Shown piece after piece: positions 2,972 through 44,850 of a stretch of 64,000 nucleotides of DNA. The notes under the pieces are model-generated. The model saw only the letters and a list, made by a program, of their open reading frames with translations. It did no database searches and was not told where the DNA came from. A program made the translations under genes and the position numbers. Source of the DNA: Candidatus Magasanikbacteria bacterium GW2011_GWA2_37_8 (GTDB lineage Bacteria; Patescibacteriota; Patescibacteriia; Magasanikbacterales; GWA2-37-8); the NCBI GenBank assembly GCA_000992085.1, contig LBTN01000005.1, positions 4,999 through 68,998 on the forward strand, read 5' to 3'. Each line of letters opens with the position of its first letter. Within the stretch, counting starts at the first letter, position 1.

Positions 2972-4525
2972 ATGCCAAATTTAATTCCCATTATCGGTCT
3001 TGAAATTCATGTTGAGCTTAAAACAAAAAGCAAAATGTTTTGTAGTTGTAAAAATGATCCCGATCATGATGCGCCCAACACCAACATTTGTGAAATTTGC
3101 CTAGCTCACCCCGGAACTTTGCCCGTACCAAACAAAACCGCAATCGAATGGACAGTAAAAATTGCCCAGGCTTTGGGTTGTAAAATTAACACCGAAAGTA
3201 AATTCGACCGTAAACATTATTTTTATCCCGATTTACCAAAAGGTTATCAAATCTCGCAATACGACCAACCCGTTGGCGAACATGGAAAAATAGAATTAGA
3301 CTTTTTACCAGGCAAAAATCATCGCGATAATACCACTATTGGTATTACTAGGGTTCACCTAGAAGAAGATACTGCCAAATTAACTCATGGCACAAAAAAT
3401 GAAACCCTGGTTGATTTTAACCGAGCTGGTGTACCACTAGTTGAAATTGTTTCAGACCCAGATATTGAAAGTGGCACCGAAGCCAAAGCTTACTGCCAAG
3501 AATTACAAGCAATTTTCCGCTCTTTGGGTGTTAGTGATGCGGATATGGAAAAAGGACAAATGCGTTGCGAAGCCAATATTTCTCTTCAAGAAGCTGGACA
3601 ATTTGTAATTGAAGATTGTATAGTAAAACCTGCCAAAAACTACACACTAAATCCAAAAGTAGAGGTAAAAAATATTAATTCTTTTCGGGCTGTAGAAAAA
3701 GCCATTGATTTTGAAATTGCACGCCAAACAAAAATGTTAGAAAATGGCGAAACCTGGATTCAACAAACTCGTGGCTGGGATAACGACAAAAATGAAACTG
3801 TACTACAACGCGAAAAAGAAACTTCGGCCGATTATCGCTACTTCCCCGAACCAGATATTCCACCATTCAACCCAAGCCAAATTGCTGGCGAAATTAATTT
3901 ACCAGAATTGCCAGCTGCCAAACGCAAACGCTTTCACACCGAATATGGTTTTTCGTATGCTGACGCCGGACTTTTAAGTAATGATAAAAATTGGGGTGAT
4001 TTTGCCGAAAGCACCATTAGCGAAATGTATGATTGGTTGCATAATTTACCAGAAACCAAAGCAAACGCCGAAGACACAATTGCTACCCAAAAAACTCAAC
4101 TGGCCAAATTGGCTGGTGGTTGGATTACTTCCAAATTAATGGGCGCAATGAGTGAAAGAAAAATTGATATTAAAATATTAAAAATTAAACCAGAAAATTT
4201 TGCCGAATTAATAGCACTAATTTTTACCAACCGCGTTAATTCTACCAACGCCCAAAAAATATTAATCGAAATGCTTGATTCTGGAGTAGATATGGACCCA
4301 ACCCATATTATGGAAGAAAAAGGCTACGGCCAAATGGCCGATGAAGATGCTTTGGGGAAAATCGTAGACGAAGTAATAAAAAACAACCCAAACCAAGTAA
4401 CCCAATTTAAAGCCGGCAAAGAACCACTACTACAATTTTTAAAAGGCATGGTAATGAAAGCCACCGAAGGCAGCGCCGACCCAGGTGTAGCCGAAAAATT
4501 GTTAAGAGAAAAGTTAAAAAATTAA
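2972..4525 (+). CDS. gatB: Asp/Glu-tRNA amidotransferase subunit B
   Basis: MPNLIPIIGLEIHVEL... N-terminus and a GatB/YqeY C-terminal domain. Follows gatA. Confidence 0.9.
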   Translation: MPNLIPIIGLEIHVELKTKSKMFCSCKNDPDHDAPNTNICEICLAHPGTLPVPNKTAIEWTVKIAQALGCKINTESKFDRKHYFYPDLPKGYQISQYDQPVGEHGKIELDFLPGKNHRDNTTIGITRVHLEEDTAKLTHGTKNETLVDFNRAGVPLVEIVSDPDIESGTEAKAYCQELQAIFRSLGVSDADMEKGQMRCEANISLQEAGQFVIEDCIVKPAKNYTLNPKVEVKNINSFRAVEKAIDFEIARQTKMLENGETWIQQTRGWDNDKNETVLQREKETSADYRYFPEPDIPPFNPSQIAGEINLPELPAAKRKRFHTEYGFSYADAGLLSNDKNWGDFAESTISEMYDWLHNLPETKANAEDTIATQKTQLAKLAGGWITSKLMGAMSERKIDIKILKIKPENFAELIALIFTNRVNSTNAQKILIEMLDSGVDMDPTHIMEEKGYGQMADEDALGKIVDEVIKNNPNQVTQFKAGKEPLLQFLKGMVMKATEGSADPGVAEKLLREKLKN

Positions 4526-4531
4526 AACATA

Positions 4532-4562
4532 AAAAAATTCCCTGAAATAAAGGGAATTTTTT
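4532..4562. terminator. Bidirectional intrinsic terminator after gatB
   Basis: AAAAAATTCCCTgaaataAAGGGAATTTTTT is a perfect hairpin flanked by A and T runs. Confidence 0.7.
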
Positions 4563-4696
4563 ATAAACAAAAATCCATCGCTTCCCCACCTAGTGCTTCC
4601 TTTAAAGAAAACACCGGGTGATGTGCGATGGACTCTTGTCCTTTCCACTCACCACCCCCAGAAGCCGATCAAACGACCACTGAGTGAACGTGCGCA

Positions 4697-5134
4697 TCAG
4701 GTAACGGACTCGAGGTAGAAGAAGATACCTTCATCGTACCTCGCCCGGATCATGGTTGGGCCCCCGATGTCGATGTTTTCGATCGCCTTCTCGAAGGTAC
4801 ATCCCCCACACTTGACAACAGCCTCGAACGGGTAGAGGTTGCAGACTACGAGATCAACCGGCTTGATGCCGAGGTTCAGGATCTGGCCCTGCTGGTCGGC
4901 GTTGGGCAGTGCCAGAATTCCACCGAGCACGCCCGGATGCAGCGTCTTCAGACGCCCGTCCAAGCACTCGGGGAACTGCGTGACTTCGGCCACGTCGATT
5001 ACGGTCAATCCGGCGTCACGCAACGCCTTGGCCGTGCCACCCGTGGACACCAACTCGAAGCCGAGCTTCACGAGGCCCTCTGCGAATTCGACCAATCCGG
5101 TCTTGTCCGAGACACTCAATACCGCACGTTTCAT
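4697..5134 (-). CDS. Stand-alone MGS-like domain (N-terminal fragment of PurH, AICAR transformylase/IMP cyclohydrolase), GC-rich and probably truncated or foreign
   Basis: [18 protein letters not shown]...[11 protein letters not shown]...[16 protein letters not shown] is the PurH MGS-like domain, but the ORF diverges and stops after about 145 aa. About 60% GC in a 35% GC genome. A strong GGAGGAGGG ribosome-binding site lies upstream on the minus strand. Confidence 0.55.
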
Positions 5135-5216
5135 GAGCACCCTCCTCCGGCTCTGCCGGTGTAAAAATGGAACAGTCATATAAACATAACACAAACGCTA
5201 TTTTTTTTCAATACTA

Positions 5217-5310: not shown

Positions 5311-5324
5311 ACGTAACCCAAACA

Positions 5325-5356
5325 CTTACTCCTTATTCCTTACTCTTTATTCCTTA
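5325..5356. repeat. (GGARTAA)n heptamer repeat, guaB 5' UTR
   Basis: CTTACTCCTTATTCCTTACTCTTTATTCCTTA ends 5 nt before the guaB ATG. Confidence 0.75.
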
Positions 5357-5360
5357 ACTT

Positions 5361-6794
5361 ATGCTTTCCATCCCTCTAGCCCTTACCTACGACGATGTTC
5401 TAATCGTACCAAAACGTTCTTCTCTCACTTCACGAAGCGAAGCTAATACAACCACTCGCTTAACCAAAAAACTCAACCTCAACATTCCTATTGTTACTTC
5501 CAACATGGACACAGTTACCGAAAGTGATATGGCGATTGCTTTGGCTCGACTGGGTGGTATTGGAATTTTGCATCGTTTTATGACAATCGAAGAAAATGCC
5601 GAAGAAGTAAAACGTGTAAAACGCGCTCAAAATTTTATTGTAAACGATCCCTATACGATTGACCCCGAAAAATCTGTAGCCGAAGCCAAAGCCTACGCTG
5701 CTTCAATTGGCATTACCGGCCTAATGGTTTCGAATGGCGATCGCAAACTTCGTGGCATTCTTTCGCGTCGTGATTTTCTTTTCTCAAATGGAGATAACAA
5801 AAAAGTTTCCGAAATCATGACACCTCGCGAAAAATTAATTGTTGGCCACGCTCATACTACTTTTAACGAAGCCAAACAAATTTTCTCCGAACATAAAATC
5901 GAAAAACTGCCATTGGTTGATTCCGAAGATAGAATTGTGGGAATTATTACAAGCGATGATATTAAACATATTATTGATTATCCACTATCTAATTGCGATG
6001 ATGACGGCCAATTAATAGTGGGCGCTTCGGTTGGTGTACAAGGTGATTTTGTAGAACGAGCCGAAGAATTGGTAAAAGCTGGTGTTGATGTAATTGTAAT
6101 TGATATTGCCCACGGCCATTCTGATGCGATGTTTAAAGCCATTGCCAAATTACGCGAAGCTATTGGCGACACACAATTAATTGCAGGTAATATTGCCACT
6201 GCCTCGGCTGCTTTAGAATTATGTGAAGCCGGAGTAGATGGATTAAAAGTTGGTGTTGGCCCTGGTACAATTTGTATCACTCGTCTAGTGACTGGTTGTG
6301 GCATGCCCCAATTAACCGCTGTAATGGAAACTTCTCGAATTGCCAAACGTTATGGTGTACCCATTATTGCTGATGGCGGTATTCAAAGATCTGGAGACAT
6401 TGTAAAAGCTATCGGTGCTGGCGCTGATACAGTAATGATGGGTGGTATGTTTGCTGGCACAGAAGAAAGCCCTGGGGTGGTTATGACCAAAGGTGATAGA
6501 AAATTTAAAATTTGTCGAGGCAGTGCCAGTTTTACCGTAGCCAATCAAAGAAGATTAATTAAACAAAGCGCTAAAGAGGTAAAAGAAATAATACCAGAAG
6601 GGGTAGAATCAATCGTGCCGTTTAAAGGGCCAGTAACCGATATTGTAAACCAACTAATTGGCGGCCTAAAATCTGGCATGAGTTACACTAATTCCCACAC
6701 CATTGCCGAACTACAAAAAAACGTCGAATTTGTTCGCATGACCAACGCCGGCTTAAAAGAAAGCGGTTCCCATGATGTTCAAGCAATTACCTAA
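5361..6794 (+). CDS. guaB: IMP dehydrogenase
   Basis: Tandem CBS domains and the catalytic loop GVGPGTICITR. 477 aa. Confidence 0.92.
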   Translation: MLSIPLALTYDDVLIVPKRSSLTSRSEANTTTRLTKKLNLNIPIVTSNMDTVTESDMAIALARLGGIGILHRFMTIEENAEEVKRVKRAQNFIVNDPYTIDPEKSVAEAKAYAASIGITGLMVSNGDRKLRGILSRRDFLFSNGDNKKVSEIMTPREKLIVGHAHTTFNEAKQIFSEHKIEKLPLVDSEDRIVGIITSDDIKHIIDYPLSNCDDDGQLIVGASVGVQGDFVERAEELVKAGVDVIVIDIAHGHSDAMFKAIAKLREAIGDTQLIAGNIATASAALELCEAGVDGLKVGVGPGTICITRLVTGCGMPQLTAVMETSRIAKRYGVPIIADGGIQRSGDIVKAIGAGADTVMMGGMFAGTEESPGVVMTKGDRKFKICRGSASFTVANQRRLIKQSAKEVKEIIPEGVESIVPFKGPVTDIVNQLIGGLKSGMSYTNSHTIAELQKNVEFVRMTNAGLKESGSHDVQAIT

Positions 6795-6812
6795 ATGTGT
6801 GGATAAATATTT

Positions 6813-6841
6813 TTGACCATATTCTTCTATTCTGCTATACT
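6813..6841 (+). promoter_or_regulatory. Promoter of the pyr operon with an adjacent DnaA box
   Basis: TTGACC, a 17-bp spacer, then TATACT. A perfect DnaA box (TGTGGATAA, reverse complement of TTATCCACA) sits at 6798-6806 immediately upstream. Confidence 0.45.
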
Positions 6842-6852
6842 GCTTTTAGCTT

Positions 6853-6939
6853 ATGAAACACAAATATCCTCTTCAAAACTACAAAAAAATTAAAAAAGAC
6901 ACATTTGTCCTCAATTTATTAATTTCCATACTACCATAA
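6853..6939 (+). CDS. Candidate pyrB leader peptide (28 aa)
   Basis: ATG-initiated ORF MKHKYPLQNYKKIKKDTFVLNLLISILP whose stop codon lies inside the hairpin of the following terminator, 22 nt before the pyrB start. This is the layout of the E. coli pyrBI attenuator. Confidence 0.35.
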   Translation: MKHKYPLQNYKKIKKDTFVLNLLISILP

Positions 6940-6954
6940 GGTAGTATTTTTTTA
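6928..6954 (+). terminator. Intrinsic terminator/attenuator in the pyrB leader
   Basis: ATACTACCataaGGTAGTAT followed by TTTTTTT. Confidence 0.5.
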
Positions 6955-6961
6955 ATTATTT

Positions 6962-7876
6962 ATGAATTTTACCAATCGCGACATCATCGGAATATCAGAA
7001 TTAACAAAAACCGAAATTCTACATATTTTAAAAATAGCCAAAAGTCTAAAACAAAAACCACAACCAAAAATTTTAGAACACAAAGTAATGGGAAGTTGTT
7101 TTTTTGAACCTTCTACTCGTACCAGACTTTCTTTTGAAACTGCCATGGAGCGATTAGGAGGTAAGGTAGTGGGGTTTGCTGATCCAGGGGTAACATCGGC
7201 CAAAAAAGGCGAATCATTATTTGACGCTATAAAAATTATTGGTCAATATGTTGATGTAATCGCCATGCGCCACCCCATCGAAGGCGCAGCCAGGCGTGCG
7301 GCCGAAGCCACCGATAAACCAATCTTAAATGGCGGTGATGGTGCCAATCAACACCCTACTCAAACATTACTAGACTTATTTACCATCCAAGAATGTCAGA
7401 AAAAACTAGAGGGTTTAAGTATTGCTTTGGTAGGTGATTTAAAATATGGCCGTACCACTCATTCTCTAGCCCAAGCATTGGCGCACTTTAACGCCAAACT
7501 ATATTTTGTTGCCCCAGACAGTTTGCAGATGCCTGGATATATTTGCGATGAATTAAAAAACAATAATATCAAATTTTCCATACATCAAAAAATCGAAGAA
7601 GTGATAAATAAAGTAGACATCTTTTATATGACTCGCATCCAAGGCGAACGTTTTGCTGATCCAATGGAATACGAACGTGTAAAAAATGTTTTTGTACTTA
7701 ATGCTAAAATGCTAGAAAAAGCCAAACCAAATTTAAAAGTAATGCATCCCCTGCCTCGAGTTAACGAAATCACAACCAGTGTTGATAAAACCCCCCACGC
7801 CTACTATTTTGAACAAGCCGAAAATGGATTGTACGTACGAGAAGCACTGCTTGGATTAGTTTTAGGTAAACTTTAA
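6962..7876 (+). CDS. pyrB: Aspartate carbamoyltransferase catalytic subunit
   Basis: STRTR, HPTQ and HPLP motifs. 304 aa. Confidence 0.9.
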
Positions 7877-7899: not shown

Positions 7900-8379
7900 A
7901 TGTCTGAATCATTACAAAAAAACAAACTCCTTGTAACCGCTATCAAAGATGGTACAGTAATTGATCATATTACTGCGGCTCATGCTCTAAAAATTATTCG
8001 CTTGCTCAATCTAGCCGATCATAACAAACGCGTTACCGTCGGGTTAAACTTGCCTAGTAAAACTATGGGGCTAAAAGATTTAATCAAAGTAGAAGGCCGC
8101 GAATTAACCGAGGAAGAAATAAAACGCGTGGCGATATTGGCACCAGAGGCAACTATTAATATTATTAAAAACTATCAAATCGCTAAAAAATTTCATGCCG
8201 AAATTCCCGATGTAATCGAATATGTAGTGGTATGCCCTAATCCAATATGTATCACCAACAACGAAAACATGGATAGTAAATTTATTGTAAAAAAAGAAAA
8301 AAATAATATCAAATTAAAATGCTGGTATTGCGAAAAAACTTTTCCCCAAGAAGAAATCAGAGACTACAAAAATAATTAA
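7900..8379 (+). CDS. pyrI: Aspartate carbamoyltransferase regulatory subunit
   Basis: 159 aa with a C-terminal zinc domain (CPNPICITNNE...CWYCEK). Confidence 0.85.
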   Translation: MSESLQKNKLLVTAIKDGTVIDHITAAHALKIIRLLNLADHNKRVTVGLNLPSKTMGLKDLIKVEGRELTEEEIKRVAILAPEATINIIKNYQIAKKFHAEIPDVIEYVVVCPNPICITNNENMDSKFIVKKEKNNIKLKCWYCEKTFPQEEIRDYKNN

Positions 8380-8380
8380 T

Positions 8381-9547
8381 ATGCTGATTAAAACTTGGAA
8401 CAACCAAGAAATTGATCTGCCAATAGAGATCGCAAATACAGGTGATCCGGTGGCTTTACCAGCTCTAATCGACCCCCATGTCCATTTTCGCACTCCGGGT
8501 GCCGAACAAAAAGAAAATTGGATTACCGGTACAGAAGCAGCTTTGGCTGGTGGTGTAACCACTGTGTTTGATATGCCAAATAATAATCCGGCCGTTATAG
8601 ACTATCAGTCAATCATAAATAAAAAACAAATTATTAATGAACAAATTAAATTAACTGGCAAACAATTAAATTATTATCTTTATTTAGGCGCTACTCCAAA
8701 TAATTATACCGAATTTGCCAAATGCAAAAACGAAATAATTGGTGTAAAACTTTTTATGGGCGCTAGCACTGGTGATTTACTAGTAGAAAAACTAGAAGAT
8801 CAGGAAAATATTTTTAAAACCTGTGCCGAATTAGATCTAGTTTTGGCAGTTCACGCCGAAAGCGAAGAAATTATTAAAGCCAACAGTTCACAGTTCACAG
8901 CCAATAGTTTAAAAACAAGTGGCCATTCAAAAATTCGTTCTCGCGAAGCAGCTGTAAAAGCAGTTACACAAGCCTTATCTTTGGCTAAAAAATATAACAC
9001 CAAATTATACATCTGCCATGTTAGTACCAAAGAAGAAATTGAATTAATTACACAAGCAAAATCAGAAGGCGTAACAGTATATGCCGAAGTTGCCCCCCAC
9101 CACCTATTTTTAACCGAAAACGACTACGAACGCCTAGGAACGCTGGGACAAATGAATCCGCCTCTTCGTACCATTTCCGATCAAATTGCCCTCTGGCAGG
9201 CCATTACGAATGGTATAATTGATACTATAGGTACCGACCACGCCCCCCATACTTTAGAAGAAAAATCTAAAACATACCCCAATTCCCCATCTGGTGTACC
9301 TGGCATCGAAACTCTTTTGCCCCTACTATTAAACGCATACCACGAAGGTAAAATTTCTCTACAAAAAATTGTTGAACTAACTAAATTTAATATTGAAAAA
9401 ATATTTAATCTACCACCAAATAATGATTGGGTAATAGCAGATTTAAATTTAGAAAAAAAAGTAGAAAACAAAAACCTAAAAACCAAATGCGGCTGGAGCC
9501 CATACTCTGAAACAAAATTAAAAGGCTGGCCAATAATGACGGTATAG
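8381..9547 (+). CDS. pyrC: Dihydroorotase
   Basis: DPHVHFRTPG metal-binding motif, amidohydrolase fold. Contains an in-frame copy of the pyr-spacer repeat at 8885-8909 (..NSSQFTANSLK..), and its TAG stop comes from the downstream repeat. Confidence 0.88.
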   Translation: MLIKTWNNQEIDLPIEIANTGDPVALPALIDPHVHFRTPGAEQKENWITGTEAALAGGVTTVFDMPNNNPAVIDYQSIINKKQIINEQIKLTGKQLNYYLYLGATPNNYTEFAKCKNEIIGVKLFMGASTGDLLVEKLEDQENIFKTCAELDLVLAVHAESEEIIKANSSQFTANSLKTSGHSKIRSREAAVKAVTQALSLAKKYNTKLYICHVSTKEEIELITQAKSEGVTVYAEVAPHHLFLTENDYERLGTLGQMNPPLRTISDQIALWQAITNGIIDTIGTDHAPHTLEEKSKTYPNSPSGVPGIETLLPLLLNAYHEGKISLQKIVELTKFNIEKIFNLPPNNDWVIADLNLEKKVENKNLKTKCGWSPYSETKLKGWPIMTV

Positions 9548-9720
9548 TTCACAGCCAATAGCCAATAGTTCGTAGTTACAGGCCTATTGGCTGTGAACTA
9601 TTGGCTATGAACTATCAACAAGCTGTTGGCTATGAACTAAATAATTAATTAATACGCCAAAAAAACAGTCACCTAAATTAACTATTGGCTGTGAACTATT
9701 GGCTAAGAACTATACACATA
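9541..9720. repeat. Cluster of TTGGCTRTGAACTA palindromic repeats (pyrC/carbamoyltransferase spacer)
   Basis: Arms TAGTTCACAGCCAATAG and CTATTGGCTGTGAACTA form a long palindrome, plus about five further direct copies of TTGGCTRTGAACTA. Confidence 0.8.
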
Positions 9721-10673
9721 TGCGTCATCTCATTTCACTTAAAGAACAAACAAAAGAAGATTTACTAAATATTTTAAATATCGCCCAAAAATTAAAAGCC
9801 AAAAGAAAAGCCGGCGAAAGTGTAGATATATTACACAACCAGACTTTAATCATGCTTTTTCAAAAAACTTCTACTCGCACTCGCCTTTCATTCGAAGCTG
9901 GTATGACCGAACTTGGTGGACATGCAATTTATTTAGACGCCCGAAATACCCAATTTGCTTTAACTGATTTTAAAGATGAAATCCAAGCTGTAATGCGGTA
10001 CGGATCGGTGTTAATGTTTCGCGCCTTAAAAGCAGCCGATGTTACCACTGCGGCTTTATTAAATAAAATTCCAGTAATCGACGCTTGTAGCGAAAAATAT
10101 CACCCTTGCCAAGCACTAGGCGATATTCTTACCATGATCGAACATTCTAATGGTTTGACTAATATTAAAAAAGTTACTTGGCTTGGCATTGAAAATAATG
10201 TTTCCAATACTTTACAATTAGCTTGTGCTAAATTGGGTATCGAAGTGGCTATTGCCGCGCCAGAAGCCAACCCACCAAGTGTTGACCCAGAATTAAATAA
10301 TTTGGCAAATAGCACTGGCTTAATTAAACGTACCACCAACTTGGCCGAAGCCATGGCCAACACCGATTATGTTCACACCGATACTTGGATTGATATGGAA
10401 TTTTTTAAAGATGGCAAAGTAATACCCGAATATCAAGCCGAATACGATCGACGTTTAAATACTTTTAAACCCTTTCAATTAAACGCTAATTTAGTAGATA
10501 CCTATTCACCCAAAGCCGGCATTATGCATTGTATGCCTTGCCACATTGGTTACGAAATTTCTCGCGATGCAATTGATCACAAAAATTCTGTTATATTTGA
10601 TCAAGCCGAAAATCGAATGCACATCCAAAAAGCAATTATATTATGGCTTTTGGAAAAAGAAAACTTAATTTAG
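9720..10673 (+). CDS. Second carbamoyltransferase of the ATCase/OTCase family (argF-like or unknown specificity)
   Basis: STRTRLSFE carbamoyl-phosphate site, HPCQALGD and HCMPCH motifs. Inserted between pyrC and pyrD and flanked on both sides by the repeat clusters. An alternative start is at 9699. Confidence 0.7.
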   Translation: MRHLISLKEQTKEDLLNILNIAQKLKAKRKAGESVDILHNQTLIMLFQKTSTRTRLSFEAGMTELGGHAIYLDARNTQFALTDFKDEIQAVMRYGSVLMFRALKAADVTTAALLNKIPVIDACSEKYHPCQALGDILTMIEHSNGLTNIKKVTWLGIENNVSNTLQLACAKLGIEVAIAAPEANPPSVDPELNNLANSTGLIKRTTNLAEAMANTDYVHTDTWIDMEFFKDGKVIPEYQAEYDRRLNTFKPFQLNANLVDTYSPKAGIMHCMPCHIGYEISRDAIDHKNSVIFDQAENRMHIQKAIILWLLEKENLI

Positions 10674-10765
10674 TTCATAGCCAACATTAATAGTTCATAG
10701 CCAATAGTTCACAGCCAATAGGCCTGTAACTACGAACTATTGGCTATTGGCTGTGAACTCTAAAT
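10668..10765. repeat. TTGGCTRTGAACTA palindromic repeat cluster (carbamoyltransferase/pyrD spacer)
   Basis: TAGTTCATAGCCAAC..TAGTTCACAGCCAATAGGCCTGTAACTACGAACTATTGGCTATTGGCTGTGAACT. It supplies the TAG stop of the upstream gene. Confidence 0.8.
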
Positions 10766-10770
10766 ATCTT

Positions 10771-11679
10771 ATGCTAGAAACAATTTTCCTAAACAAACAA
10801 TTCTCTAATCCCATTGTACTCGCTTCAGGAATCTTAGGCGTAACCGGTGCTAGTTTAAATAATGTTATCAAAAATGGCGCTGGTGGTGTAACAGTAAAAT
10901 CTGTTTCCAAAGAACCACGTCTTGGCCACCCCAACCCTACCATGGCTGGTTATGAACATTTTTTTATTAACGCAGTTGGACTTTCCAACCCAGGAATTGA
11001 AAATGCTATTCTTGAATTAAAAAAATTCAAAGAATTGTCTAACGCACCGCTAATTGGTAGTATTTTTGCTGGCACACCCGAAGAATTTGGTTGGTTGGCA
11101 GAAAAAATTTGTGAAGCGCCAATTGATTTTTTGGAAATCGATATTTCTTGCCCAAATGTTAGCCGCGAATTTGGCGACCCCTTTGCTTATTCTGTACCAG
11201 CCGTAGAAAAAATTACCAAAGCAGTCAAAGAAAAATCAACTGTACCAATTTCTGTTAAACTTTCCCCTAATGCTTGGAATATTGATATAATTGCTAAAGC
11301 CGCCGAAAGTTCTGGTGCCGATGCTATTACCGCCGTAAACACTATTAGCGGTATGACAATCGATGTTCGGGCTCGTCGACCAGTTCTACACAATAAACAA
11401 GGTGGCGTATCTGGCCCAGCCCTATTTCCAATTGCCCTTAAATGCGTGTATGATATTTACAGGGCAGTAAAAATTCCAATTATTGGTACTGGCGGAGTAA
11501 CCACTGGTGAAAATGCCTTAGCCATGATTATGGCTGGCGCTACTTTGGTGGGTGTAGGCTCTGCGGTATATTTTCGAGGGGTAGAAGTTTTTAAACACAT
11601 TACCGAAGAAATGACAAAAATTATGGAGGAAGAAGGAATAAAAAATTTAAACGAAATTCGTGGCTGTGTACATTTGTAG
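10771..11679 (+). CDS. pyrD: Dihydroorotate dehydrogenase catalytic subunit (class 1B)
   Basis: TIM-barrel DHODH motifs (GVTVKS.., SNPG, GGV.TGE). Confidence 0.88.
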   Translation: MLETIFLNKQFSNPIVLASGILGVTGASLNNVIKNGAGGVTVKSVSKEPRLGHPNPTMAGYEHFFINAVGLSNPGIENAILELKKFKELSNAPLIGSIFAGTPEEFGWLAEKICEAPIDFLEIDISCPNVSREFGDPFAYSVPAVEKITKAVKEKSTVPISVKLSPNAWNIDIIAKAAESSGADAITAVNTISGMTIDVRARRPVLHNKQGGVSGPALFPIALKCVYDIYRAVKIPIIGTGGVTTGENALAMIMAGATLVGVGSAVYFRGVEVFKHITEEMTKIMEEEGIKNLNEIRGCVHL

Positions 11680-11745
11680 TTCAGAGCCAATAGCCAATAG
11701 TTCGTAGTTACAGCCTATTGGCTGTGAACTATCAACAAACTATTA
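11676..11745. repeat. TTGGCTRTGAACTA palindromic repeat (pyrD/pyrK spacer)
   Basis: TAGTTCAGAGCCAATAGCCAATAGTTCGTAGTTACAGCCTATTGGCTGTGAACTA. The pyrD TAG stop lies inside it. Confidence 0.8.
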
Positions 11746-11759
11746 ACTTATAATATTAT

Positions 11760-12563
11760 ATGGATTCTACATTTATTAAAATCTCTGATATAGAAATCGA
11801 AAACTCGAACGTAAAAACTTTTTATTTTGATTATGAATTAAAAAGTAAACCAGGACAATTTATCATGCTTTGGATTCCAGGCACAGATCAAAAACCATTT
11901 TCTGTTTCTTTTGATAACGGCCAAAAATTTGGTTTAACCATTTTTAAACGAGGGCCAGCAACCAATAAATTATTTAAAATGAAAATTGGTGATCGGGTCG
12001 GAATAAATGGACCATACGGCACCAACTTTACTATCAATCCAAATTTACACTACATTATGGTAGCTGGTGGGTATGGTGCTGCCCCTTTAAAATTTTTAAC
12101 TCAAACTATTAATGGTGCTGCAATCGATTTTATTGCTGGTGGCCGCACCAAAGATAATTTATTATTTGAAGAAGAACTAACAAAAATACCAAACCTTAAT
12201 TTACATATTACTACCGATGACGGCAGCAAAGGTTATAAAGGATTTGTAACTGATGTATTAGTAGAATTGTTAGCTAAAATTGACCCTGCCCAAAAAGATA
12301 AAACTTTGGTGGTTACTTGTGGGCCAGAATTAATGCAAAAAAAGGTATTGGATATTTGTAATGAACACAATATTAATTGCGAAGTAAGCATCGAACGCTA
12401 TATGAAATGTGGTATGGGTATTTGCGGCCAATGCGTAATTGATGATTTGGGTATTTGTATGTGTAAAGACGGACCAGTAGTTAATCAAAAATTAGCTAAC
12501 CAAATTTTTGAATTTGGTAAATATCATCGTGATAAAAGTGGTGTAATAGTTCACAGCCAATAG
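11760..12563 (+). CDS. pyrK: Dihydroorotate dehydrogenase electron-transfer subunit
   Basis: FAD/NAD-binding domain plus a C-terminal 2Fe-2S motif CGMGICGQCV. The final residues VHSQ and the stop codon are encoded by the repeat. Confidence 0.85.
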   Translation: MDSTFIKISDIEIENSNVKTFYFDYELKSKPGQFIMLWIPGTDQKPFSVSFDNGQKFGLTIFKRGPATNKLFKMKIGDRVGINGPYGTNFTINPNLHYIMVAGGYGAAPLKFLTQTINGAAIDFIAGGRTKDNLLFEEELTKIPNLNLHITTDDGSKGYKGFVTDVLVELLAKIDPAQKDKTLVVTCGPELMQKKVLDICNEHNINCEVSIERYMKCGMGICGQCVIDDLGICMCKDGPVVNQKLANQIFEFGKYHRDKSGVIVHSQ

Positions 12564-12650
12564 CCAATAGTTCATAGTTACGGGCCTATTGGCTACGAAC
12601 TATCAACAACCTATTGGCTACGAACTATTGGCTATGAACTAATTAAACAT
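12549..12650. repeat. TTGGCTRTGAACTA palindromic repeat cluster (pyrK/pyrE spacer)
   Basis: TAGTTCACAGCCAATAGCCAATAGTTCATAGTTACGGGCCTATTGGCTACGAACTA plus two further direct copies. Confidence 0.8.
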
Positions 12651-13247
12651 ATGACCAAAGATTTAATTCTAAAACTTTACGAAATCAATGCGGTTAAATT
12701 TGGTGAATTTAAATTAAAGAGCGGTATCATGTCGCCAATTTATATTGATCTGCGTATTACTGTTTCTTACCCCGAAGTATTAAAAATGGTAGCCGAAGCA
12801 ATGTGGCAAAAAGTAAATGACATAAAATTTGATTTAATTTGCGGTGTCCCCTATACTGCTTTACCGATTGCTACGGTTATGTCGGTAGAACACAATATCC
12901 CAATGATTATGCGCCGCAAAGAAGTAAAAGATTATGGTACTAAAAAAGCAATTGAAGGAAAATTTGAAACCGGACAAAATTGTTTAATTATTGAAGACTT
13001 GGTTACTTCTGGCTCTAGCGTTTTTGAAACCATCGAACCACTACAATTAGAAGGATTAAAAGTAACAGACATTGTAGTATTGGTAGATCGTGAGCAAGGT
13101 GGAAAAAAACATCTTCAAACAAAAGGCTATAATTTACATTCTGTAATTACCATTTCAGAAATGTTAGAAGTTTTAAAAACTGAAAATAAGTTAGAAAAAG
13201 AAATGGTAGAAAAAGTAAAAACATTTATTCAAAGCAACCAAGTGTAA
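12651..13247 (+). CDS. pyrE: Orotate phosphoribosyltransferase
   Basis: PRPP-binding motif [11 protein letters not shown]. 198 aa. Confidence 0.88.
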
Positions 13248-13249
13248 TT

Positions 13250-14020
13250 ATGAATTATACCTACACACAACGCGCGAATTTATGTACCAATCCAACTGCT
13301 GTAAAACTTTTACAGTTAATGGACCAAAAACAAACCAATCTTTGTATCGCCGCCGACGTAATTTCTAAAAACCAATTACTAAAAATCGCCGACGAACTTG
13401 GAGACGAAATATGTATTTTGAAAACTCATATTGATATTTTGGAAGATTTTGATATGGACACAGTTATCCAACTTGACAGATTATCAGAAAAACATAATTT
13501 TCTTTTATTTGAAGACAGAAAATTTGCGGACATTGGTAACACTGTAAAACACCAATATCAAGACGGCATTTATCACATCGCCGATTGGGCTCACATTACT
13601 AACGCTCACACTGTTCCAGGGCCAGGAATTATTACTGGCCTAAAAGAAGTTGGGTTGCATAAAGGACGAGGATTACTACTGCTTGCCGAAATGAGTTCGG
13701 CTGGCACGCTCGCTAAAAATGAATACACTGCCGAAACATTAGAAATGGCAAAAAACAACAAAGACTTTGTAATTGGTTTTATTACCATGCGCCAGTTAAT
13801 TGATGACCCGTGTTTTATTAATCTAACACCAGGAGTACAACTAGCAGTTGGCACTGACAACTTAGGACAACAATACAACACCCCAGAAAAAGTAATTAAA
13901 GAAAATAATTCAGATGTTATTATTGTCGGCCGAGGTATTTATGAAGCCCAGGATCCAATTGCCGAAGCCAAAAAATATCGCACTGCCGGTTGGCAAGCAT
14001 ACTTGGCTAAATTAAGCTAA
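13250..14020 (+). CDS. pyrF: Orotidine-5'-phosphate decarboxylase
   Basis: [11 protein letters not shown] active-site motif. Confidence 0.88.
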
Positions 14021-14145
14021 ATTTATATACCCCATCTTGACAGAATAGCAAATTTATGCTATTCTGTTATGTTATTGGGGTGGAGAAAATAATAATTAAT
14101 TAGTTGATTGTTATTTTGTCCGTAACCATATGGATGGAGGAATCC

Positions 14146-16521: not shown

Positions 16522-16532
16522 AGTGTGAAAGA

Positions 16533-16613
16533 AATAAGGAGTAAAGAGTAAGGAATAAATAACAGTTAATCGCCCGCATTACTTATTCCTTTTTCCTTAT
16601 TCTTTATTCCTTC
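16533..16613. repeat. Inverted pair of (GGARTAA)n repeats
   Basis: AATAAGGAGTAAAGAGTAAGGAATAA ... TTATTCCTTTTTCCTTATTCTTTATTCCTT in the Nif3/epmB spacer. Confidence 0.75.
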
Positions 16614-16711: not shown

Positions 16712-17641
16712 TCATTTTACTTTTATTTTCTTCCCCCTAAAATCCTTATAACTATCTGCCTTAAATTCCCAAAAATCCAACGGCACAGGTATTTTACCAG
16801 AACCATCTGGGGCGTCAATAGTATATAATGGTGTTGCTAAACCACTTAGTCTCTTGCGTAATTCTGTAAAAATTTTTATTTCTTTTTTAAAATCAACCAT
16901 AAAATGTTCGACCCCAATTACTGGATCACACCGAAAAAAATAATACGGCTTTACTCCCACTTCTACTAATCGAGAAAATAAATTATACAAAATTTCTACA
17001 GAATCATTAACTCCTTTTAGTGAAACTGTTTGCGATAACATCATTGTACAAACCGGACGCAAACGATTTAATGCTTTAATGGTTGCCTCGGTAATTTCGG
17101 CTGGATGTTCAAAATGTAGCATTAAATATAGTGGCTGTTTTTTAACTATTTTTAATGCTTCAATTAACTTTTTATTTACTGCACTGGGATTAGAAACCGG
17201 CAAACGCGAGCCAACCCTAATTACTTTTATTTGAGGTAATTTTACAAATTTTTGTAAAGCTTGTTTTAGTATTTCTGGCACGGTCATAGGGTCGCCACCA
17301 GAAAAAACCAATTCTTTAATTTCGGGATGTTGTTTAATATATCGCACCATATTATCCAAATCTTTGGTACTAACTATTCCTTTAGCAATATCCGATACTT
17401 TACGTCGGCGAGTACAAAACCGACAATAGGCAGCACAATTCATAGTTAAAAGCACCAGAGCTCTATTACCGTACTTGTGCACTAAACCCCGAGTAACTGT
17501 AAAATGTTCCTCGAGCAACGGATCGGCCGAAGTAATCGTTTCGTCTTGCTCTTCTTTGTTCGAAGGTACAAACTGACGATAAATTTCCGGACAAACTTTG
17601 GTAAGTTTTTTTAAATGTGGTGATAATCTAGTTGCCAACAT
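16712..17641 (-). CDS. Lysine 2,3-aminomutase family radical SAM enzyme (EpmB/KamA-like)
   Basis: CAAYCRFCTRR CxxxCxxC radical-SAM motif of the KamA family. 309 aa, which is EpmB-sized. efp and epmA are present at 62.3-63.9 kb. Confidence 0.8.
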   Translation of the reverse strand: MLATRLSPHLKKLTKVCPEIYRQFVPSNKEEQDETITSADPLLEEHFTVTRGLVHKYGNRALVLLTMNCAAYCRFCTRRRKVSDIAKGIVSTKDLDNMVRYIKQHPEIKELVFSGGDPMTVPEILKQALQKFVKLPQIKVIRVGSRLPVSNPSAVNKKLIEALKIVKKQPLYLMLHFEHPAEITEATIKALNRLRPVCTMMLSQTVSLKGVNDSVEILYNLFSRLVEVGVKPYYFFRCDPVIGVEHFMVDFKKEIKIFTELRKRLSGLATPLYTIDAPDGSGKIPVPLDFWEFKADSYKDFRGKKIKVK

Positions 17642-17646
17642 AGAAT

Positions 17647-17733
17647 TAAGGAATAATGAAAAAGGATTAAGGAATAAGTAACCTAAACAATCAATCGCTA
17701 TTTACTCTTTATTCCTTACTCCTTGTTCCTTCA
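17647..17733. repeat. Inverted pair of (GGARTAA)n repeats
   Basis: TTAAGGAATAATGAAAAAGGATTAAGGAATAAG ... TTTACTCTTTATTCCTTACTCCTTGTTCCTTC. It supplies the epmB 5' UTR and the last codons and stop of the ATP-grasp gene. Confidence 0.75.
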
Positions 17734-19789: not shown

Positions 19790-19999
19790 ATAAATAAATA
19801 TTCAAAAAAATTAACTGACCAGAAGATCCAGCGTTTGGTTGCTCTTTAACGGGTTAAAGAGTAATCAAACATGGGATTAGAACAAACAATTTCGCGTTTA
19901 TTTGCCCTCGAGCGGGTTGTGCCCCGCAGGGCACCCTTTTGCCCTCGCGGGCAAAAAAAGCGAGGGGGCAAATAAACGTGGAATTGTGATTATGATTTA

Positions 20000-20045
20000 A
20001 TAAAATAAACAAAATCCCAAGTCAACCACAGTCAACTTGGGATTA
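20000..20045 (-). terminator. ileS intrinsic terminator
   Basis: On the minus strand AATCCCAAGTTGAC..GTCAACTTGGGATT is followed by TTTTGTTTATTTTATT. Confidence 0.55.
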
Positions 20046-20172
20046 AATTTTAGTCAGAGATTAAATTAGGGAAAGGATCCTCCGTAAAGGACACATGATT
20101 CATAATATTTTTTCTGGTGTAATTATATCACCACTCACCCTAGTGTCAAGAGATTTTTGCCATGTGGATAAG

Positions 20173-23118
20173 TTAAACTAAAGCAATCATTACTTTACCC
20201 TCTCCTACTTCTATTTCTACCGCACCGTCCCTAGCTTCCAACACCAAATCTTTGGCTTTAACCGATGCTATTAATTCTGTTTTATATACCTCAAAAACTT
20301 CAACCAATTCTTTGTCTTCAGTATGCCAAAAAATAGTTACCAAATCCGCTGGGGTAAGATTTTTCTCTTTACGCATCTGATTTATCCCACGAACAAGTTC
20401 GCGCAACAAACCTTCACGTTTAAGTTCGGGGGTAATAACCGTATTTAATCTAATCTTAATTTCAGATTCTTCTTTTGTTACACCATCTTCTTGGTCTCGC
20501 ACTACTTCTGTATATTTAACCTCTTTTACATTCAATTCATCAGCTGCCATTTTCTCCAATTGTTCTGAAAGTTGTTTTCCTTGATAACGTACATATTGTA
20601 GTGGTTGTCTTACCTTCACTCCACTTTCTGCCCGAGCTGCCAAACCCATCTCCACAATCTTCCTAGCCAAAATCATTTCTTCCAAAACTTTTTCATTCAC
20701 CAATTTTTTATCCACCTCTGGCCAAGTCTCCAAATGTACTGATTCGATTATTCCTTGTTCCTTGCTCCTTATTCCTTTATATATCTTCTCTGCAATAAAC
20801 GGCGTAAACGGTGCCATTAACTTGGATAAAGTTAAAAGTACATAACCCAAAGTATCCGAAGCAGCCAAAGCATCGTTTTTATCATCTCCTTTAAATCTAT
20901 CACGCGAACGACGCACATACCACTGCGATAATTCGGTAACAAAATCCAAAATTGGTCGAGAAGCATCAGTCAAACGATAACCCTCCATGCCTTTGGTAAC
21001 ATCACCAATCAATACTTGCAATTTTGCCAAAATCCACTTGTCCAATATATTCTCACTTACTCCTTGTTCCTTATTCCTTATTCCTTCACTCGCAAACATT
21101 TCGTAAAATGTAACTACATTCCACAAAGTATTAATTAATTTACTATAAACTTCACGCACCCCAATCTCAGAAAAATTTAACCCTTCGGCTGCCATTACTG
21201 GCGAAGTAACCAAATAGTAGCGCATGGCATCAGCACCATATTTTTCCAAAACAATATCTGGTTCTGGATAGTTCTTTAAACGCTTGCTCATTTTTTTACC
21301 ATCTTCTGCCAAAACAATGCCATTAACAATTACATTACGAAAAGCTGGCACTGAATGTTTGGTCGGGATAATTGGTTTTTTACCACTAGTTAAAGCAGTG
21401 GCTAAAATATGCAAGGTATAAAACCAACCGCGAGTTTGATCTTGGCCTTCCGCGATAAACTCCGCTGGAAAACCAGCCTCAAATTTGGTCTTATTCTCAA
21501 ACGGATAATGCATTTGCCCATATGGCATAGAACCAGATTCAAACCAACAATCCAAAACCTCAGGAATACGTTTATATACCTTACCATCTTTTTTAATCTC
21601 CAAATCATCAATTTTGTGTTTATGAAGATCAGTGATTTTTGCACCAGTTAATTGTTCCAATTCTTCTACATTCCCTATACACAATGCCTCACCATCCTCA
21701 TTTTCCCAAACTGGAAGCGGGGTTCCCCAAAATCGATTACGCGATACCGCCCAATCACGCGCGCCTTCAAGCCACAAACCAAAACGCCCTTCTTTTATAT
21801 GCTCTGGCACCCAATTAATATCTTTATTATTTTTTAATAGTTGTTCTTTTAATTCTGTAACTTTAATAAACCAACTATTGGTAGCATAATTAAGAAGCGG
21901 GGTATCACAACGCCAACAATGTGGATAACTATGTTCAAATTTTTCTTTGCTAAATAATTTTCCATTATGCGCTAACCATTTAATAATTTCTACATCAGTC
22001 GCTGTCGGCTCTTCGCGTGGTTTAACTTCATGGCCAGCAAAATCTTCTACTTCCTCTACAAATCTCCCATCCATTTTTACGTGTTGCACCAGCGGTATCC
22101 CCTCACGTTTGCCCACATTATAATCGTCTTCACCAAAAGCTGGAGCAATATGTACCACACCAGTACCGTCTTCGGTGGTAACAAAATCAGCGCCTACTAC
22201 TCGAAAGGCATTAGAGGTATTAACAAAATATGGAAATAACGGTTCATATTCAAGACCGATTAAATCCGAACCCTTGAATGTTTTATCTAACACATAACTC
22301 GTATCACGTAACACAGTTTCTAATCTATCCTTGGCCAATACCAAATTTTCTTCACCAACTTTTACTAAAACATAATCAATATCACTACCAACTGCCAACA
22401 AAACATTTCCTGGCAAAGTCCAAGGCGTAGTTGTCCAAGCCAAAATATACACCGGCCCGCTCACGTCTCGTAATTTTTCCTTATTACTTACTCCTTGTTC
22501 CTTTATACAAAACTTCATAGTCACTGAAATGTCTTTTACATCTTTATATCCCTGCGTTACTTCAAAATTTGATAACGGCGTTACACAGCGCGGACAAATA
22601 TGCATGGCCTTGTGCCCTTTGTAAATCAAATTCAAATCCCAAAGCTGTTTAAACACCCACCAAACACTTTCCATATATGGCAAATCCATGGTTTTATAAT
22701 CATTTTCCATATCAACCCAGCGCCCCATACGTTTGATAGTCTTTTTCCATTCTTCCGCGTATTTCAAAACCGTTGCCCGACAAGCTTCATTAAATTTGGC
22801 TACACCATATTCTTCAATATCTTTTTTACTATTCAAATTTAATTCTTTCTCAATAATATTCTCCACTGGTAACCCATGGCAATCCCAACCCCACCGGCGT
22901 TCCACGCGTTTTCCTTGCATGGTCCAATAACGTGGTACCACATCTTTCATAAGCGAAGCCACAATATGCCCATAATGAGGAAGTCCGGTAGCAAAAGGCG
23001 GACCATCATAAAAAACATATGGCTTATCCTCTGGACGTTCAGAAACAGATTTTTCAAAAATTTTGTTATCCTCCCAAAATTTTAAGACTTCTTTTTCGTT
23101 GTCGTTAGCGTTATACAT
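20173..23118 (-). CDS. ileS: Isoleucine--tRNA ligase
   Basis: 981 aa. HIGH (PHYGH) and KMSKR (KMSKRLKN) motifs. Carries three in-frame copies of the (GGARTAA)n repeat. Confidence 0.93.
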   Translation of the reverse strand: MYNANDNEKEVLKFWEDNKIFEKSVSERPEDKPYVFYDGPPFATGLPHYGHIVASLMKDVVPRYWTMQGKRVERRWGWDCHGLPVENIIEKELNLNSKKDIEEYGVAKFNEACRATVLKYAEEWKKTIKRMGRWVDMENDYKTMDLPYMESVWWVFKQLWDLNLIYKGHKAMHICPRCVTPLSNFEVTQGYKDVKDISVTMKFCIKEQGVSNKEKLRDVSGPVYILAWTTTPWTLPGNVLLAVGSDIDYVLVKVGEENLVLAKDRLETVLRDTSYVLDKTFKGSDLIGLEYEPLFPYFVNTSNAFRVVGADFVTTEDGTGVVHIAPAFGEDDYNVGKREGIPLVQHVKMDGRFVEEVEDFAGHEVKPREEPTATDVEIIKWLAHNGKLFSKEKFEHSYPHCWRCDTPLLNYATNSWFIKVTELKEQLLKNNKDINWVPEHIKEGRFGLWLEGARDWAVSRNRFWGTPLPVWENEDGEALCIGNVEELEQLTGAKITDLHKHKIDDLEIKKDGKVYKRIPEVLDCWFESGSMPYGQMHYPFENKTKFEAGFPAEFIAEGQDQTRGWFYTLHILATALTSGKKPIIPTKHSVPAFRNVIVNGIVLAEDGKKMSKRLKNYPEPDIVLEKYGADAMRYYLVTSPVMAAEGLNFSEIGVREVYSKLINTLWNVVTFYEMFASEGIRNKEQGVSENILDKWILAKLQVLIGDVTKGMEGYRLTDASRPILDFVTELSQWYVRRSRDRFKGDDKNDALAASDTLGYVLLTLSKLMAPFTPFIAEKIYKGIRSKEQGIIESVHLETWPEVDKKLVNEKVLEEMILARKIVEMGLAARAESGVKVRQPLQYVRYQGKQLSEQLEKMAADELNVKEVKYTEVVRDQEDGVTKEESEIKIRLNTVITPELKREGLLRELVRGINQMRKEKNLTPADLVTIFWHTEDKELVEVFEVYKTELIASVKAKDLVLEARDGAVEIEVGEGKVMIALV
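20748..20780. repeat. (GGARTAA)n repeat in-frame inside ileS
   Basis: Encodes ..IKEQGVSNKEK.. on the minus strand. Confidence 0.7.
21055..21089. repeat. (GGARTAA)n repeat in-frame inside ileS
   Basis: Encodes ..SEGIRNKEQGVS.. on the minus strand. Confidence 0.7.
22477..22507. repeat. (GGARTAA)n repeat in-frame inside ileS
   Basis: Encodes ..GIRSKEQGII.. on the minus strand. Confidence 0.7.
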
Positions 23119-24853: not shown

Positions 24854-24949
24854 ATGTAATGAAGGATCTTCACCAACGGACAGAGATCTTTCACTTCGCT
24901 CAAGATGACAATATTATAACTTTATTAACTTTAAAACTTTATAACTCCT

Positions 24950-29216: not shown

Positions 29217-29217
29217 A

Positions 29218-29248
29218 TAAAGGAGTAAGGAATAAAGAATAAGGAACA
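29218..29248. repeat. (GGARTAA)n repeat
   Basis: AAGGAGTAAGGAATAAAGAATAAGGAACAA between the four-helix-bundle gene and the downstream hypothetical gene. Confidence 0.7.
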
Positions 29249-29249
29249 A

Positions 29250-29600: not shown

Positions 29601-29632
29601 TTACTCCTTATTCTTTATTCCTTACTCCTTAT
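29597..29632. repeat. (GGARTAA)n repeat
   Basis: CACTTACTCCTTATTCTTTATTCCTTACTCCTTATA between the trmH-like gene and the four-helix-bundle gene. Confidence 0.7.
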
Positions 29633-44812: not shown

Positions 44813-44850
44813 ACTTTATAAACTTTATAACTTTCAACTTTACTAACTTC

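Follow-up and report, generated by a model that had tools for sequence, protein, structure and literature searches.

Introduction

The pyrimidine biosynthesis (pyr) operon of Candidatus Magasanikbacteria bacterium GW2011_GWA2_37_8 lies within a stretch of 64,000 nucleotides (assembly GCA_000992085.1, contig LBTN01000005.1, positions 4,999 to 68,998 of the forward strand), which is called the window here and is numbered from its first letter. Four consecutive spacers of this operon, from pyrC to pyrE, carry direct and inverted copies of a short unit, and a further copy lies in-frame within pyrC. The locus raises the questions of what these repeats are, how they came to lie in the operon and whether they regulate it. 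A first-pass annotation considered either an iteron-like protein-binding array or mRNA punctuation of the repetitive extragenic palindromic (REP) kind, and proposed that the extra carbamoyltransferase gene between two of the repeat clusters had been brought in by repeat-mediated insertion.

It is likely that the pyr repeats are derivatives, lacking an open reading frame (ORF) and resembling miniature inverted-repeat transposable elements (MITEs), of palindromes of the intervening sequence (IVS) type. The arms of such palindromes are tandem heptads associated with PF05635 genes, and those in mRNA spacers would be selfish elements cut by RNase III. This reading is built on the anatomy of the elements, their dispersal, their association with PF05635 cassettes, the footprints of their insertion and their non-conservation at orthologous sites. 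By themselves, the pyr repeats are most likely selfish palindromes between cistrons and do not amount to a new regulatory circuit. An architecture of heptad arm, PF05635 gene and complementary arm recurs in many phyla, and this wider association is the part worth following.

Structure of the repeat elements in the pyr operon

The 17-mer TTGGCTRTGAACTA is matched 17 times in the 64-kb window with two or fewer mismatches, and every match lies within 8891–12641; shuffled controls give an expectation of 1.0 and a highest count of 4. No unit-like 17-mer occurs elsewhere in the window, even when four mismatches are allowed. The description of the repeats as genuine palindromic elements is borne out. 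The unit is not a single 14–17-mer as first described but a heptad, and two heptads, TAGTTCA and TAGCCAA, alternate (family 1). The arm adjoining the upstream gene (5' arm) reads TAGTTCA CAGCCAA TAGCCAA TAGTTCG TAGTTAC, and the arm adjoining the downstream gene (3' arm) is its complement, CTATTGG CTGTGAA CTATTGG CTATGAA CTA. Since TAG recurs every 7 nt, each of the three reading frames meets a stop codon in the 5' arm. Across arms and loop, the four spacer elements can be aligned with a mean column identity of 83%; they are copies of one palindrome of about 60–70 nt, one of them inverted. Extra solo units flank the core elements.

The operon, identified by Pfam, consists of pyrB (6962–7876), pyrI (7900–8379), pyrC (8381–9547), a plus-strand gene of the ornithine carbamoyltransferase (OTCase) type (9720–10673) whose best NCBIfam matches are OTCase models just below cut-off, pyrD (10771–11679), pyrK (11760–12563), pyrE (12651–13247) and pyrF (13250–14020). 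The element of spacer 1 (9545–9639, plus strand) is composed of a 5' arm, a loop, the 3' arm CTATTGGCTGTGAACTATTGGCTATGAACTA and an extra 3' unit at 9626–9639, and pyrC terminates at the first TAG of this element (9545–9547). It is followed at 9682–9712 on the plus strand by a solo tandem pair of 3'-arm type, CTATTGGCTGTGAACTATTGGCTAAGAACTA, which ends 7 nt before the ATG of the carbamoyltransferase gene (9720), an arm-to-ATG arrangement that is also found in other genomes. The element of spacer 2 (10671–10762, minus strand) is the inverted copy, with 76 nt that are 97% reverse-complementary to spacer 1 (9543–9618), plus an extra unit at 10671–10684 whose TAG is the stop codon of the carbamoyltransferase gene (10671–10673). 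The element of spacer 3 (11677–11738, plus strand) is shorter, with one 3' unit, and its first TAG is the pyrD stop (11677–11679). The element of spacer 4 with two extra 3' units (12547–12641, plus strand) provides the pyrK stop as its third TAG (12561–12563), encodes the final PyrK residues, IVHSQ, and ends 9 nt before the pyrE ATG (12651). A partial copy of 5'-arm-type heptads, CAGTTCA CAGTTCA CAGCCAA TAGTT, is present in-frame in pyrC (8884–8909, plus strand) and encodes NSSQFTANSL. The coordinates thus verify all four stop codons that had been placed inside the repeat, the repeat-encoded PyrK terminus and the in-frame pyrC copy. The description of the spacers as almost entirely repeat fails for spacer 1 (172 nt), because a 42-nt AT-rich linker lies at 9640–9681.

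RNA folding of spacers 1, 2 and 4 gives −41 to −44 kcal/mol (−41.3 for spacer 2) with z-scores of about −7 (to −7.2), and spacer 3 gives −23.5 kcal/mol with a z-score of −3.6, so that all four spacers are predicted to fold stably. The predicted stems are 17–35 bp long, and terminal inverted repeats that give a stable stem are a hallmark of IVSs. The in-frame pyrC copy forms no hairpin in RNA folding. The arrays of the pyr operon are 100% identical among independent assemblies from several samples, indicating that they are not an assembly artefact. Variation in heptad number between strains was looked for and not seen: six independent assemblies of one population are identical across the arrays, and their indels fall in other parts of pyrC and pyrD.

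The arrays sit inside the operon and not at its promoter. A promoter scan finds no strong promoter or terminator within the arrays; the best promoter-like site, at 6813–6841, precedes pyrB, and a hairpin resembling a terminator lies past pyrF at 14038–14069. A sigma-70 promoter in the tandem unit (TTGGCT as −35, GAACTA as −10) was rejected for its poor spacing and hexamer fit, and no array site reaches 10 of 12 matches. Known RNA families were also considered: a scan at the Rfam gathering threshold returns tRNAs only, and a permissive scan adds sub-threshold miRNA-like hairpins (31 bits against a cut-off of 90). The leader of the operon has features of its own, namely a promoter-like TTGACC-17-TATACT with an upstream TG and then a terminator-like hairpin with a T-run at 6928–6947, before the pyrB ATG (6962). 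The segment 6813–6947 could be a transcription attenuator, and it matches no Rfam family.

Turnover of the elements in orthologous pyr operons

The carbamoyltransferase gene is also found between pyrC and pyrD in three relatives, L117 (87% identity), L118 (82%) and L119 (73%). In L119 the spacers flanking this gene are 12 and 54 nt long and have no arrays. Since the gene is syntenic in an array-free relative, the repeats did not bring it in, contrary to the initial proposal, and the conserved gene order points to a resident member of the operon that is not part of the element. Integron cassettes with attC sites were considered as well and rejected: gene order is conserved in array-free relatives, the arms do not fit RYYYAAC/GTTRRRY, and no integrase is found among the operon neighbours.

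The comparison with related operons that had been recommended shows that the carbamoyltransferase gene is kept and the repeats are variable or absent. Nearly all pyr spacers of L117 hold palindromic arrays of tandem 7–8-nt units whose sequence differs from spacer to spacer, those of L118 hold a mixture of families, and L119 has almost no arrays. The PyrC alignment suggested at the same time finds no repeat peptide in the orthologues, and PyrC of the window is 2 residues longer at that variable loop. At the same loop, L117 pyrC (within 4008–5204) carries an in-frame (GAAATTG) × 4.5 array encoding ELEIGNWKLEIG, and L118 and L119 have no repeat there. A different heptad in one relative and none in the other two indicate that the window peptide is an insertion into a variable loop, suggesting that this PyrC loop is a hot spot for heptad arrays. 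The C-terminus of the window PyrC is 7–8 residues shorter than those of all three orthologues, and residues encoded by the repeat take the place of the PyrK tail, indicating that the elements overwrote the 3' ends of these genes.

Related operons also hold additional genes linked to carbamoyl phosphate or arginine. L117 has a carbamate kinase gene in the pyr operon (2988–3932), and L118 has a second carbamoyltransferase gene, a gene for an AdoMet-decarboxylase-like protein and a lyase gene (5643–6956 and 8067–9386). The carbamate kinase would fit a role of the carbamoyltransferase in supplying carbamoyl phosphate, and this gene content suggests that carbamoyl phosphate for pyrimidines comes from citrulline or carbamate and not from carAB.

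Dispersal of the family-1 repeat

A scan for the exact 17-mer CTATTGGCTRTGAACTA, with one genome per species, finds at least 110 loci. Among the matches listed, 3–7 separate loci lie within single metagenome-assembled genomes (MAGs) of Magasanikbacteria, and further matches lie in MAGs labelled Parcubacteria or 'uncultured Gammaproteobacteria'. The family is thus spread through Magasanikbacteria and related genomes of the candidate phyla radiation. The 14–17-nt sequence of family 1 thus recurs at many non-orthologous sites in genomes of 33–56% GC, and short imperfect extragenic palindromes in many copies, as in REPs and bacterial interspersed mosaic elements (BIMEs), are present across these other genomes.

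Comparison of about 70 arrays of at least two units shows a uniform layout. The arrays nearly always occupy short spacers between same-strand genes, and their polarity is constant, TAGTTCA...AGCCAATAG being followed by CTATTGGCT...GAACTA. The upstream gene runs 3, 10 or 17 nt into the arm before it ends, and the ATG of the downstream gene lies 1–20 nt past the arm. Among the 83 flanking genes 101 Pfam families are represented, and their products include ribosomal proteins, elongation factor P (EF-P), RecR, LepA and glycosyltransferases. The recurrence of the unit beside thyA and dut reflects a single orthologous site common to four genomes, and this one site accounts for the apparent enrichment of pyrimidine genes among the flanking genes.

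Association of heptad arms with PF05635 genes

The flanking genes include genes for PF05635/TIGR02436 'four helix bundle' proteins, also named S23p or 23S rRNA intervening-sequence proteins, which are orthologous to one another (117–120 aa, 69–79% identity). All six close orthologues with visible flanks, from six genomes, are bracketed by family-1 arms. The layout of these cassettes is the same in 6/6 cases: the PF05635 gene has the same orientation as the host operon, the 5' arm TAGTTCAYAGCCAATAG stops 10–25 nt short of the ATG of this gene, and the 3' arm CTATTGGCTRTGAACTA starts 0–12 nt past the stop codon or overlaps it and is followed by the next host ATG. Family-1 cassettes are found at three or more host sites: before the EF-P gene, between pyrB and pyrI, and beside the RecR gene.

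The pyrB–pyrI spacer is found in three states. L015 carries a full cassette, in L118 the same arms enclose a 100-nt loop in which 12 of 13 nt of the final PF05635 codons survive, and the window has an empty spacer of 23 nt. As judged from these sequences, ORF-less copies appear to derive from full cassettes by deletion. Remnants of PF05635 genes were sought in the loops of the window's own elements and none was found; the 13-nt remnant in the L118 loop is the sole one.

Other heptad families bracket other PF05635 genes. A paralogue with 41% identity in L089 is enclosed by a third family, TAAGCAN, as a near-perfect 35-nt inverted repeat. The window itself contains a complete cassette of a second family, TAAGGAA/TTCCTTA, at 29217–29632 on the minus strand, consisting of the 5' arm AAGGAGTAAGGAATAAAGAATAAGGAGTAA (29630–29601), the gene (29600–29250) and the 3' arm TTGTTCCTTATTCTTTATTCCTTACTCCTT (29249–29220). 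The gene product matches PF05635 with an E-value of 2.3e-32 and TIGR02436 with 108 bits against a cut-off of 24. A TAA within the 5' arm terminates the SpoU methylase gene that lies upstream, and the ATG of the next gene comes after the 3' arm. As in IVSs, therefore, a PF05635 ORF is found between the arms, for family 1 in six other genomes and for family 2 in the window; the pyr copies are ORF-less. Both the second family and the link to PF05635 cassettes had been missed in the first-pass annotation.

The repeat family of the pyr operon is also present in L003, L012, L029, L030, L032, L069 and other loci of MAGs labelled 'uncultured Gammaproteobacteria', with PF05635 genes 70–75% identical to those of Magasanikbacteria; these labels are probably wrong.

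Generality of the association

A metagenome scan with an alignment of the PF05635 proteins above yielded 80 loci, 66 of them with both flanks. Of these 66 PF05635 genes, 52 (79%) have upstream and downstream flanks whose reverse-complementarity exceeds the 99th percentile of mismatched controls, and none of 76 other genes of the same loci reaches this flank score (p = 2e-15). The arms are tandem repeats, most commonly of period 7, whose sequence differs from locus to locus, and only 1 of 253 control segments has such a repeat. Arm similarity increases with PF05635 protein identity. The family-1 arms of the cassettes, together with the heptad arms of these 52 genes, lead to the reading of the pyr repeats as ORF-less derivatives of IVS-type elements.

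Annotated cyanobacterial plasmids show the same layout of PF05635 gene and heptad flanks, with the heptads TCAGGAG/TCAGAAT in Nostoc punctiforme and Trichormus. In a Picosynechococcus plasmid (L204) the AGGAGAT family brackets a four-helix-bundle gene between cas10 and cmr3, and in a Pseudanabaena plasmid (L205) a heptad-flanked four-helix-bundle gene lies between cas6 and cas4. Such cas-adjacent cassettes may explain why gene-neighbourhood surveys have reported the PF05635 family as CRISPR-associated. A full-text search of the literature found no statement of a general association between PF05635 genes and heptad arms, or of such elements in mRNA spacers.

Comparison with known repeat systems

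The closest likeness is to the IVSs of rRNA genes in Salmonella, Leptospira, Coxiella and the candidate phyla radiation (CPR), which have terminal inverted repeats forming a long stem and may contain an S23p/PF05635 ORF of about 120 aa, other versions, of about 100 nt, having no ORF; their sporadic distribution suggests horizontal spread, and they are transcribed within the host RNA. The IVS in the 23S rRNA gene of Coxiella burnetii contains an S23p ORF, a 28-bp terminal inverted-repeat stem that is cut by RNase III, and tandem GACAGAT heptamers in the stem region whose number varies among strains (PMC4990558). The structure of S23p, as cited in that article, is a homopentamer of four-helix bundles. 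PF05635 ORFs are also present in rRNA insertions of CPR bacteria, where their function was left undetermined (bioRxiv 10.1101/2024.02.27.582315). The elements of the pyr type differ from rRNA IVSs in that they lie in mRNA, between cistrons or in-frame, and not in helices 9, 25 and 45 of 23S rRNA, are present in multiple copies per genome, have arms that consist entirely of heptads and provide host genes with stop codons. No 23S or 16S rRNA gene is present in the window, and the elements lie between protein genes; they behave like IVSs but fall outside the strict class because they are not in rRNA.

In marine Beggiatoaceae, Cyanobacteria and Bacteroidetes, heptamers such as TAACTGA have been described shortly before start codons, with no associated gene (PMC4679880), and heptamer repeats in Nostoc affect expression (bioRxiv 10.1101/2022.06.06.494920). 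Like the elements studied here, the TAACTGA arrays and the cyanobacterial short tandemly repeated repetitive (STRR)-type arrays are made of 2–6 tandem copies of a 7-nt unit, are intergenic and end a few nt before start codons; some extend over the end of the preceding ORF, some lie inside ORFs, and the downstream genes show no functional pattern. Those arrays have been described as direct repeats without a partner arm or gene, whereas here two heptads alternate, inverted arms are usual and the arms are tied to PF05635. Tandem Repeats Finder detects arrays with a period of 7 or 14 at no fewer than 20 places in the window, which places it among sequences with heptamer simple-sequence repeats.

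REP/BIME-type elements and MITEs such as the Correia elements of Neisseria are short palindromic extragenic repeats as well, often co-transcribed in operons and mostly ORF-less. They can stabilise or process mRNA, and Correia elements are RNase III substrates. The present elements differ in that no REP-associated tyrosine transposase (RAYT) or other transposase was seen beside them, their arms are tandem heptads, the associated gene encodes a four-helix-bundle protein and not a recombinase, and several sequence families share one architecture.

Avd of diversity-generating retroelements is a sequence homologue of the PF05635/TIGR02436 proteins and shares with them the pentameric four-helix-bundle fold of 2GSC (PMC10053308), a structure that the PF05635 proteins studied here match with E = 1e-28. 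Against NF033474 and PF22296, these proteins stay below cut-off. Neither a reverse transcriptase nor a template or variable repeat lies nearby; the gene stands alone between heptad arms.

A model for the origin of the pyr repeats

These observations lead to a plausible sequence of events. Four successive spacers between cistrons would each have received a copy of one element of about 60–70 nt, one of these copies being inverted, and a fragment of the element would have been inserted into the variable loop of PyrC. The insertions would have cost the genes upstream of them their original 3' ends and stop codons, a loss that could be tolerated because the 5' arm offers a stop codon in every frame. 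The arrays are probably co-transcribed with the operon, within a single mRNA from pyrB to pyrF, and would fold there into the predicted stems. By analogy with rRNA IVSs, RNase III probably cuts these stems and would thereby divide the polycistronic mRNA between cistrons; an RNase III signature motif is seen in the Magasanikbacteria locus L008 and not in the window. The cognate PF05635 protein may recognise the heptads and take part in the maintenance or spread of the elements. Most likely, then, the elements are selfish passengers with side effects on mRNA processing or stability and not a pyrimidine regulator, which is close to the REP-like mRNA punctuation considered at first, in the form of PF05635-associated ORF-less palindromes in mRNA spacers.

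Several observations weigh against this reading. No family-1 PF05635 gene is present in the 64-kb window, and all family-1 copies of the window cluster in one operon, for which local copying is the simplest guess. No mobility enzyme was found, and PF05635 is no known recombinase. The mismatches between arms show no excess of the G:U type over the A:C type (68 versus 64; 17 versus 20) and hence do not demonstrate selection for pairing in the sense RNA. In the metagenome loci, PF05635 genes are co-oriented with their neighbours in 76% of cases upstream and 64% downstream, which does not clearly exceed the background for bacteria. Of six cyanobacterial cases, two have flanking heptads that are direct and not inverted.

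There is a bolder hypothesis, put forward only tentatively: PF05635/TIGR02436 pentamers might be sequence-specific heptad binders, each paralogue matched to its own repeat, so that gene and arms would together form a new, minimal class of self-propagating element. If true, one mechanism would account for rRNA IVSs, for the function of S23p and for the unexplained heptamers of Cyanobacteria, Beggiatoaceae, Bacteroidetes and CPR bacteria, and the class would colonise transcribed spacers of mRNA operons, rRNA genes and even coding loops, the pyr operon having been swept recently by an ORF-less form. The architecture ties the IVSs of 23S rRNA and their S23p ORFs to start-adjacent tandem heptamers, two features that were treated apart and for decades had no explanation, and the link between PF05635 and heptads may help explain both of these old puzzles. 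For the annotation of CPR genomes, it means that 3' ends and stop codons can be supplied by elements, that start codons can be mis-called in ATG-bearing arms, and that repeat peptides can lie in-frame in housekeeping enzymes.

Alternative explanations

Two alternatives to the derivation from PF05635 cassettes survive best, and each of them is unlikely. The first is that the elements are generic REP/BIME- or MITE-like repeats moved by a RAYT or an enzyme of the IS630/Tc1 type, with a TA target, encoded elsewhere, PF05635 being a mere passenger or neighbour. Short, extragenic, palindromic elements dispersed in both orientations, most of them ORF-less, are what such an enzyme would leave, and the outermost bases, TA...TA, are compatible with a TA target duplication. 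These outer TA dinucleotides, however, belong to the heptad and are indistinguishable from a target duplication, and the sole 'parent' found encodes PF05635 and not a transposase. No transposase gene was seen next to any array, and neither a conventional transposase nor a Y1 transposase is among the 25 commonest Pfam families of the 83 flanking genes, which is a weak test. The head of the element varies among ATAG, TTAG and GTAG, unlike the constant GTAG head of REPs, and the arms are tandem heptads instead of a unique terminal inverted repeat. Moreover, three heptad families each bracket a different PF05635 paralogue, and such paralogue-matched arms, together with the 79% association, are not predicted if PF05635 is a passenger.

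The second, of about the same low probability, is that the arms are translation or 5' untranslated region elements, the 3' arm being a loading or regulator-binding site and the hairpin coupling downstream translation to upstream termination. The 3' arm lies 1–20 nt before the downstream ATG in most arrays, solo 3' arms without a partner precede the starts of the IMP dehydrogenase gene (5361), the ORF starting at 23895 and the carbamoyltransferase gene (9720), and the genes of the window have no obvious Shine–Dalgarno motifs. The heptamers described by MacGregor in 2015 (PMC4679880) occupy the same position, and the expression effects in Nostoc (bioRxiv 10.1101/2022.06.06.494920) point the same way. 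Adjacency to the start codon, however, follows simply from insertion into very short spacers. In addition, orthologous genes of close relatives have no arms or have unrelated sequences in their place, and the inverted pyr element places the other type of arm beside the start codon.

A third explanation, that the arrays are functionless simple-sequence repeats produced by slippage in place, with palindromes arising through template switching and with no mobile or protein-linked part, is very improbable. Heptanucleotides are the commonest long simple-sequence repeats of prokaryotes (Mrazek 2007, as cited in PMC4679880), relatives carry different heptads at the same sites, the PyrC loop among them, and the arm mismatches lack a G:U bias, all of which would fit slippage. 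Slippage alone, however, would not be expected to place the same 14–17-nt sequence, in pyr with the same loop, at many non-orthologous sites of genomes that differ in GC content, or to produce the tight association with PF05635.

The weakest explanation, an operator or iteron array specific to pyr that is bound by a pyrimidine regulator and that brought in the carbamoyltransferase gene, is favoured by the restriction of the family-1 unit to the pyr operon within the window and by its recurrence beside thyA, dut/dcd and pyrI in other genomes, but it has almost no chance of being correct and is already contradicted by the comparative data, because the thyA/dut cases go back to a single orthologous site, the majority of flanking genes have no connection with pyrimidine metabolism, the unit is absent from orthologous pyr operons or replaced by other families, and the carbamoyltransferase gene is syntenic in array-free relatives.

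Other repeats and features of the window

The second family is also present in the window without an ORF. A TAAGGAA/TTCCTTA palindrome at 16529–16612 (minus strand) ends 7 nt before the ATG at 16521 and folds with −31.4 kcal/mol (z-score −4.6), and another at 17641–17731 (minus strand) fills the spacer of two minus-strand genes, the upstream stop codon, TAA at 17711–17709, lying in its 5' arm. A solo array of 3'-arm type, TTACTCC TTATTCC TTACTCT TTATTCC (5321–5360, plus strand), abuts the ATG of the IMP dehydrogenase gene (5361–6794), which lies upstream of the pyr operon, and a solo TAAGGAA-family arm directly precedes the start codon at 23895. Three arrays of the same family are in-frame in the isoleucyl-tRNA synthetase gene (ORF 20173–23118, minus strand), at 20750–20777, 21052–21086 and 22476–22503, and encode the similar peptides KGIRSKEQGI, EGIRNKEQGVSE and KEQGVSNKEK.

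More tandem arrays with units of 7–9 nt are found at 24914–24946 (TTATAACT, before the ATG at 24950), 44813–44849 (ACTTTATA), 45703–45735 and 51302–51333. The ACTTTATA array adjoins the stop codon of a minus-strand gene (44851–49317), and other units are TTCTTGA and AATTAGA. These arrays may be additional families of the same kind. The 383-nt minus-strand spacer at 19790–20172 contains GC-rich nested hairpins of about −113 kcal/mol in a genome of 37% GC, with no Rfam match above threshold. Finally, a 60-nt unit is repeated 2.1 times with 98% identity at 50192–50316, inside the ORF at 50137–51234.

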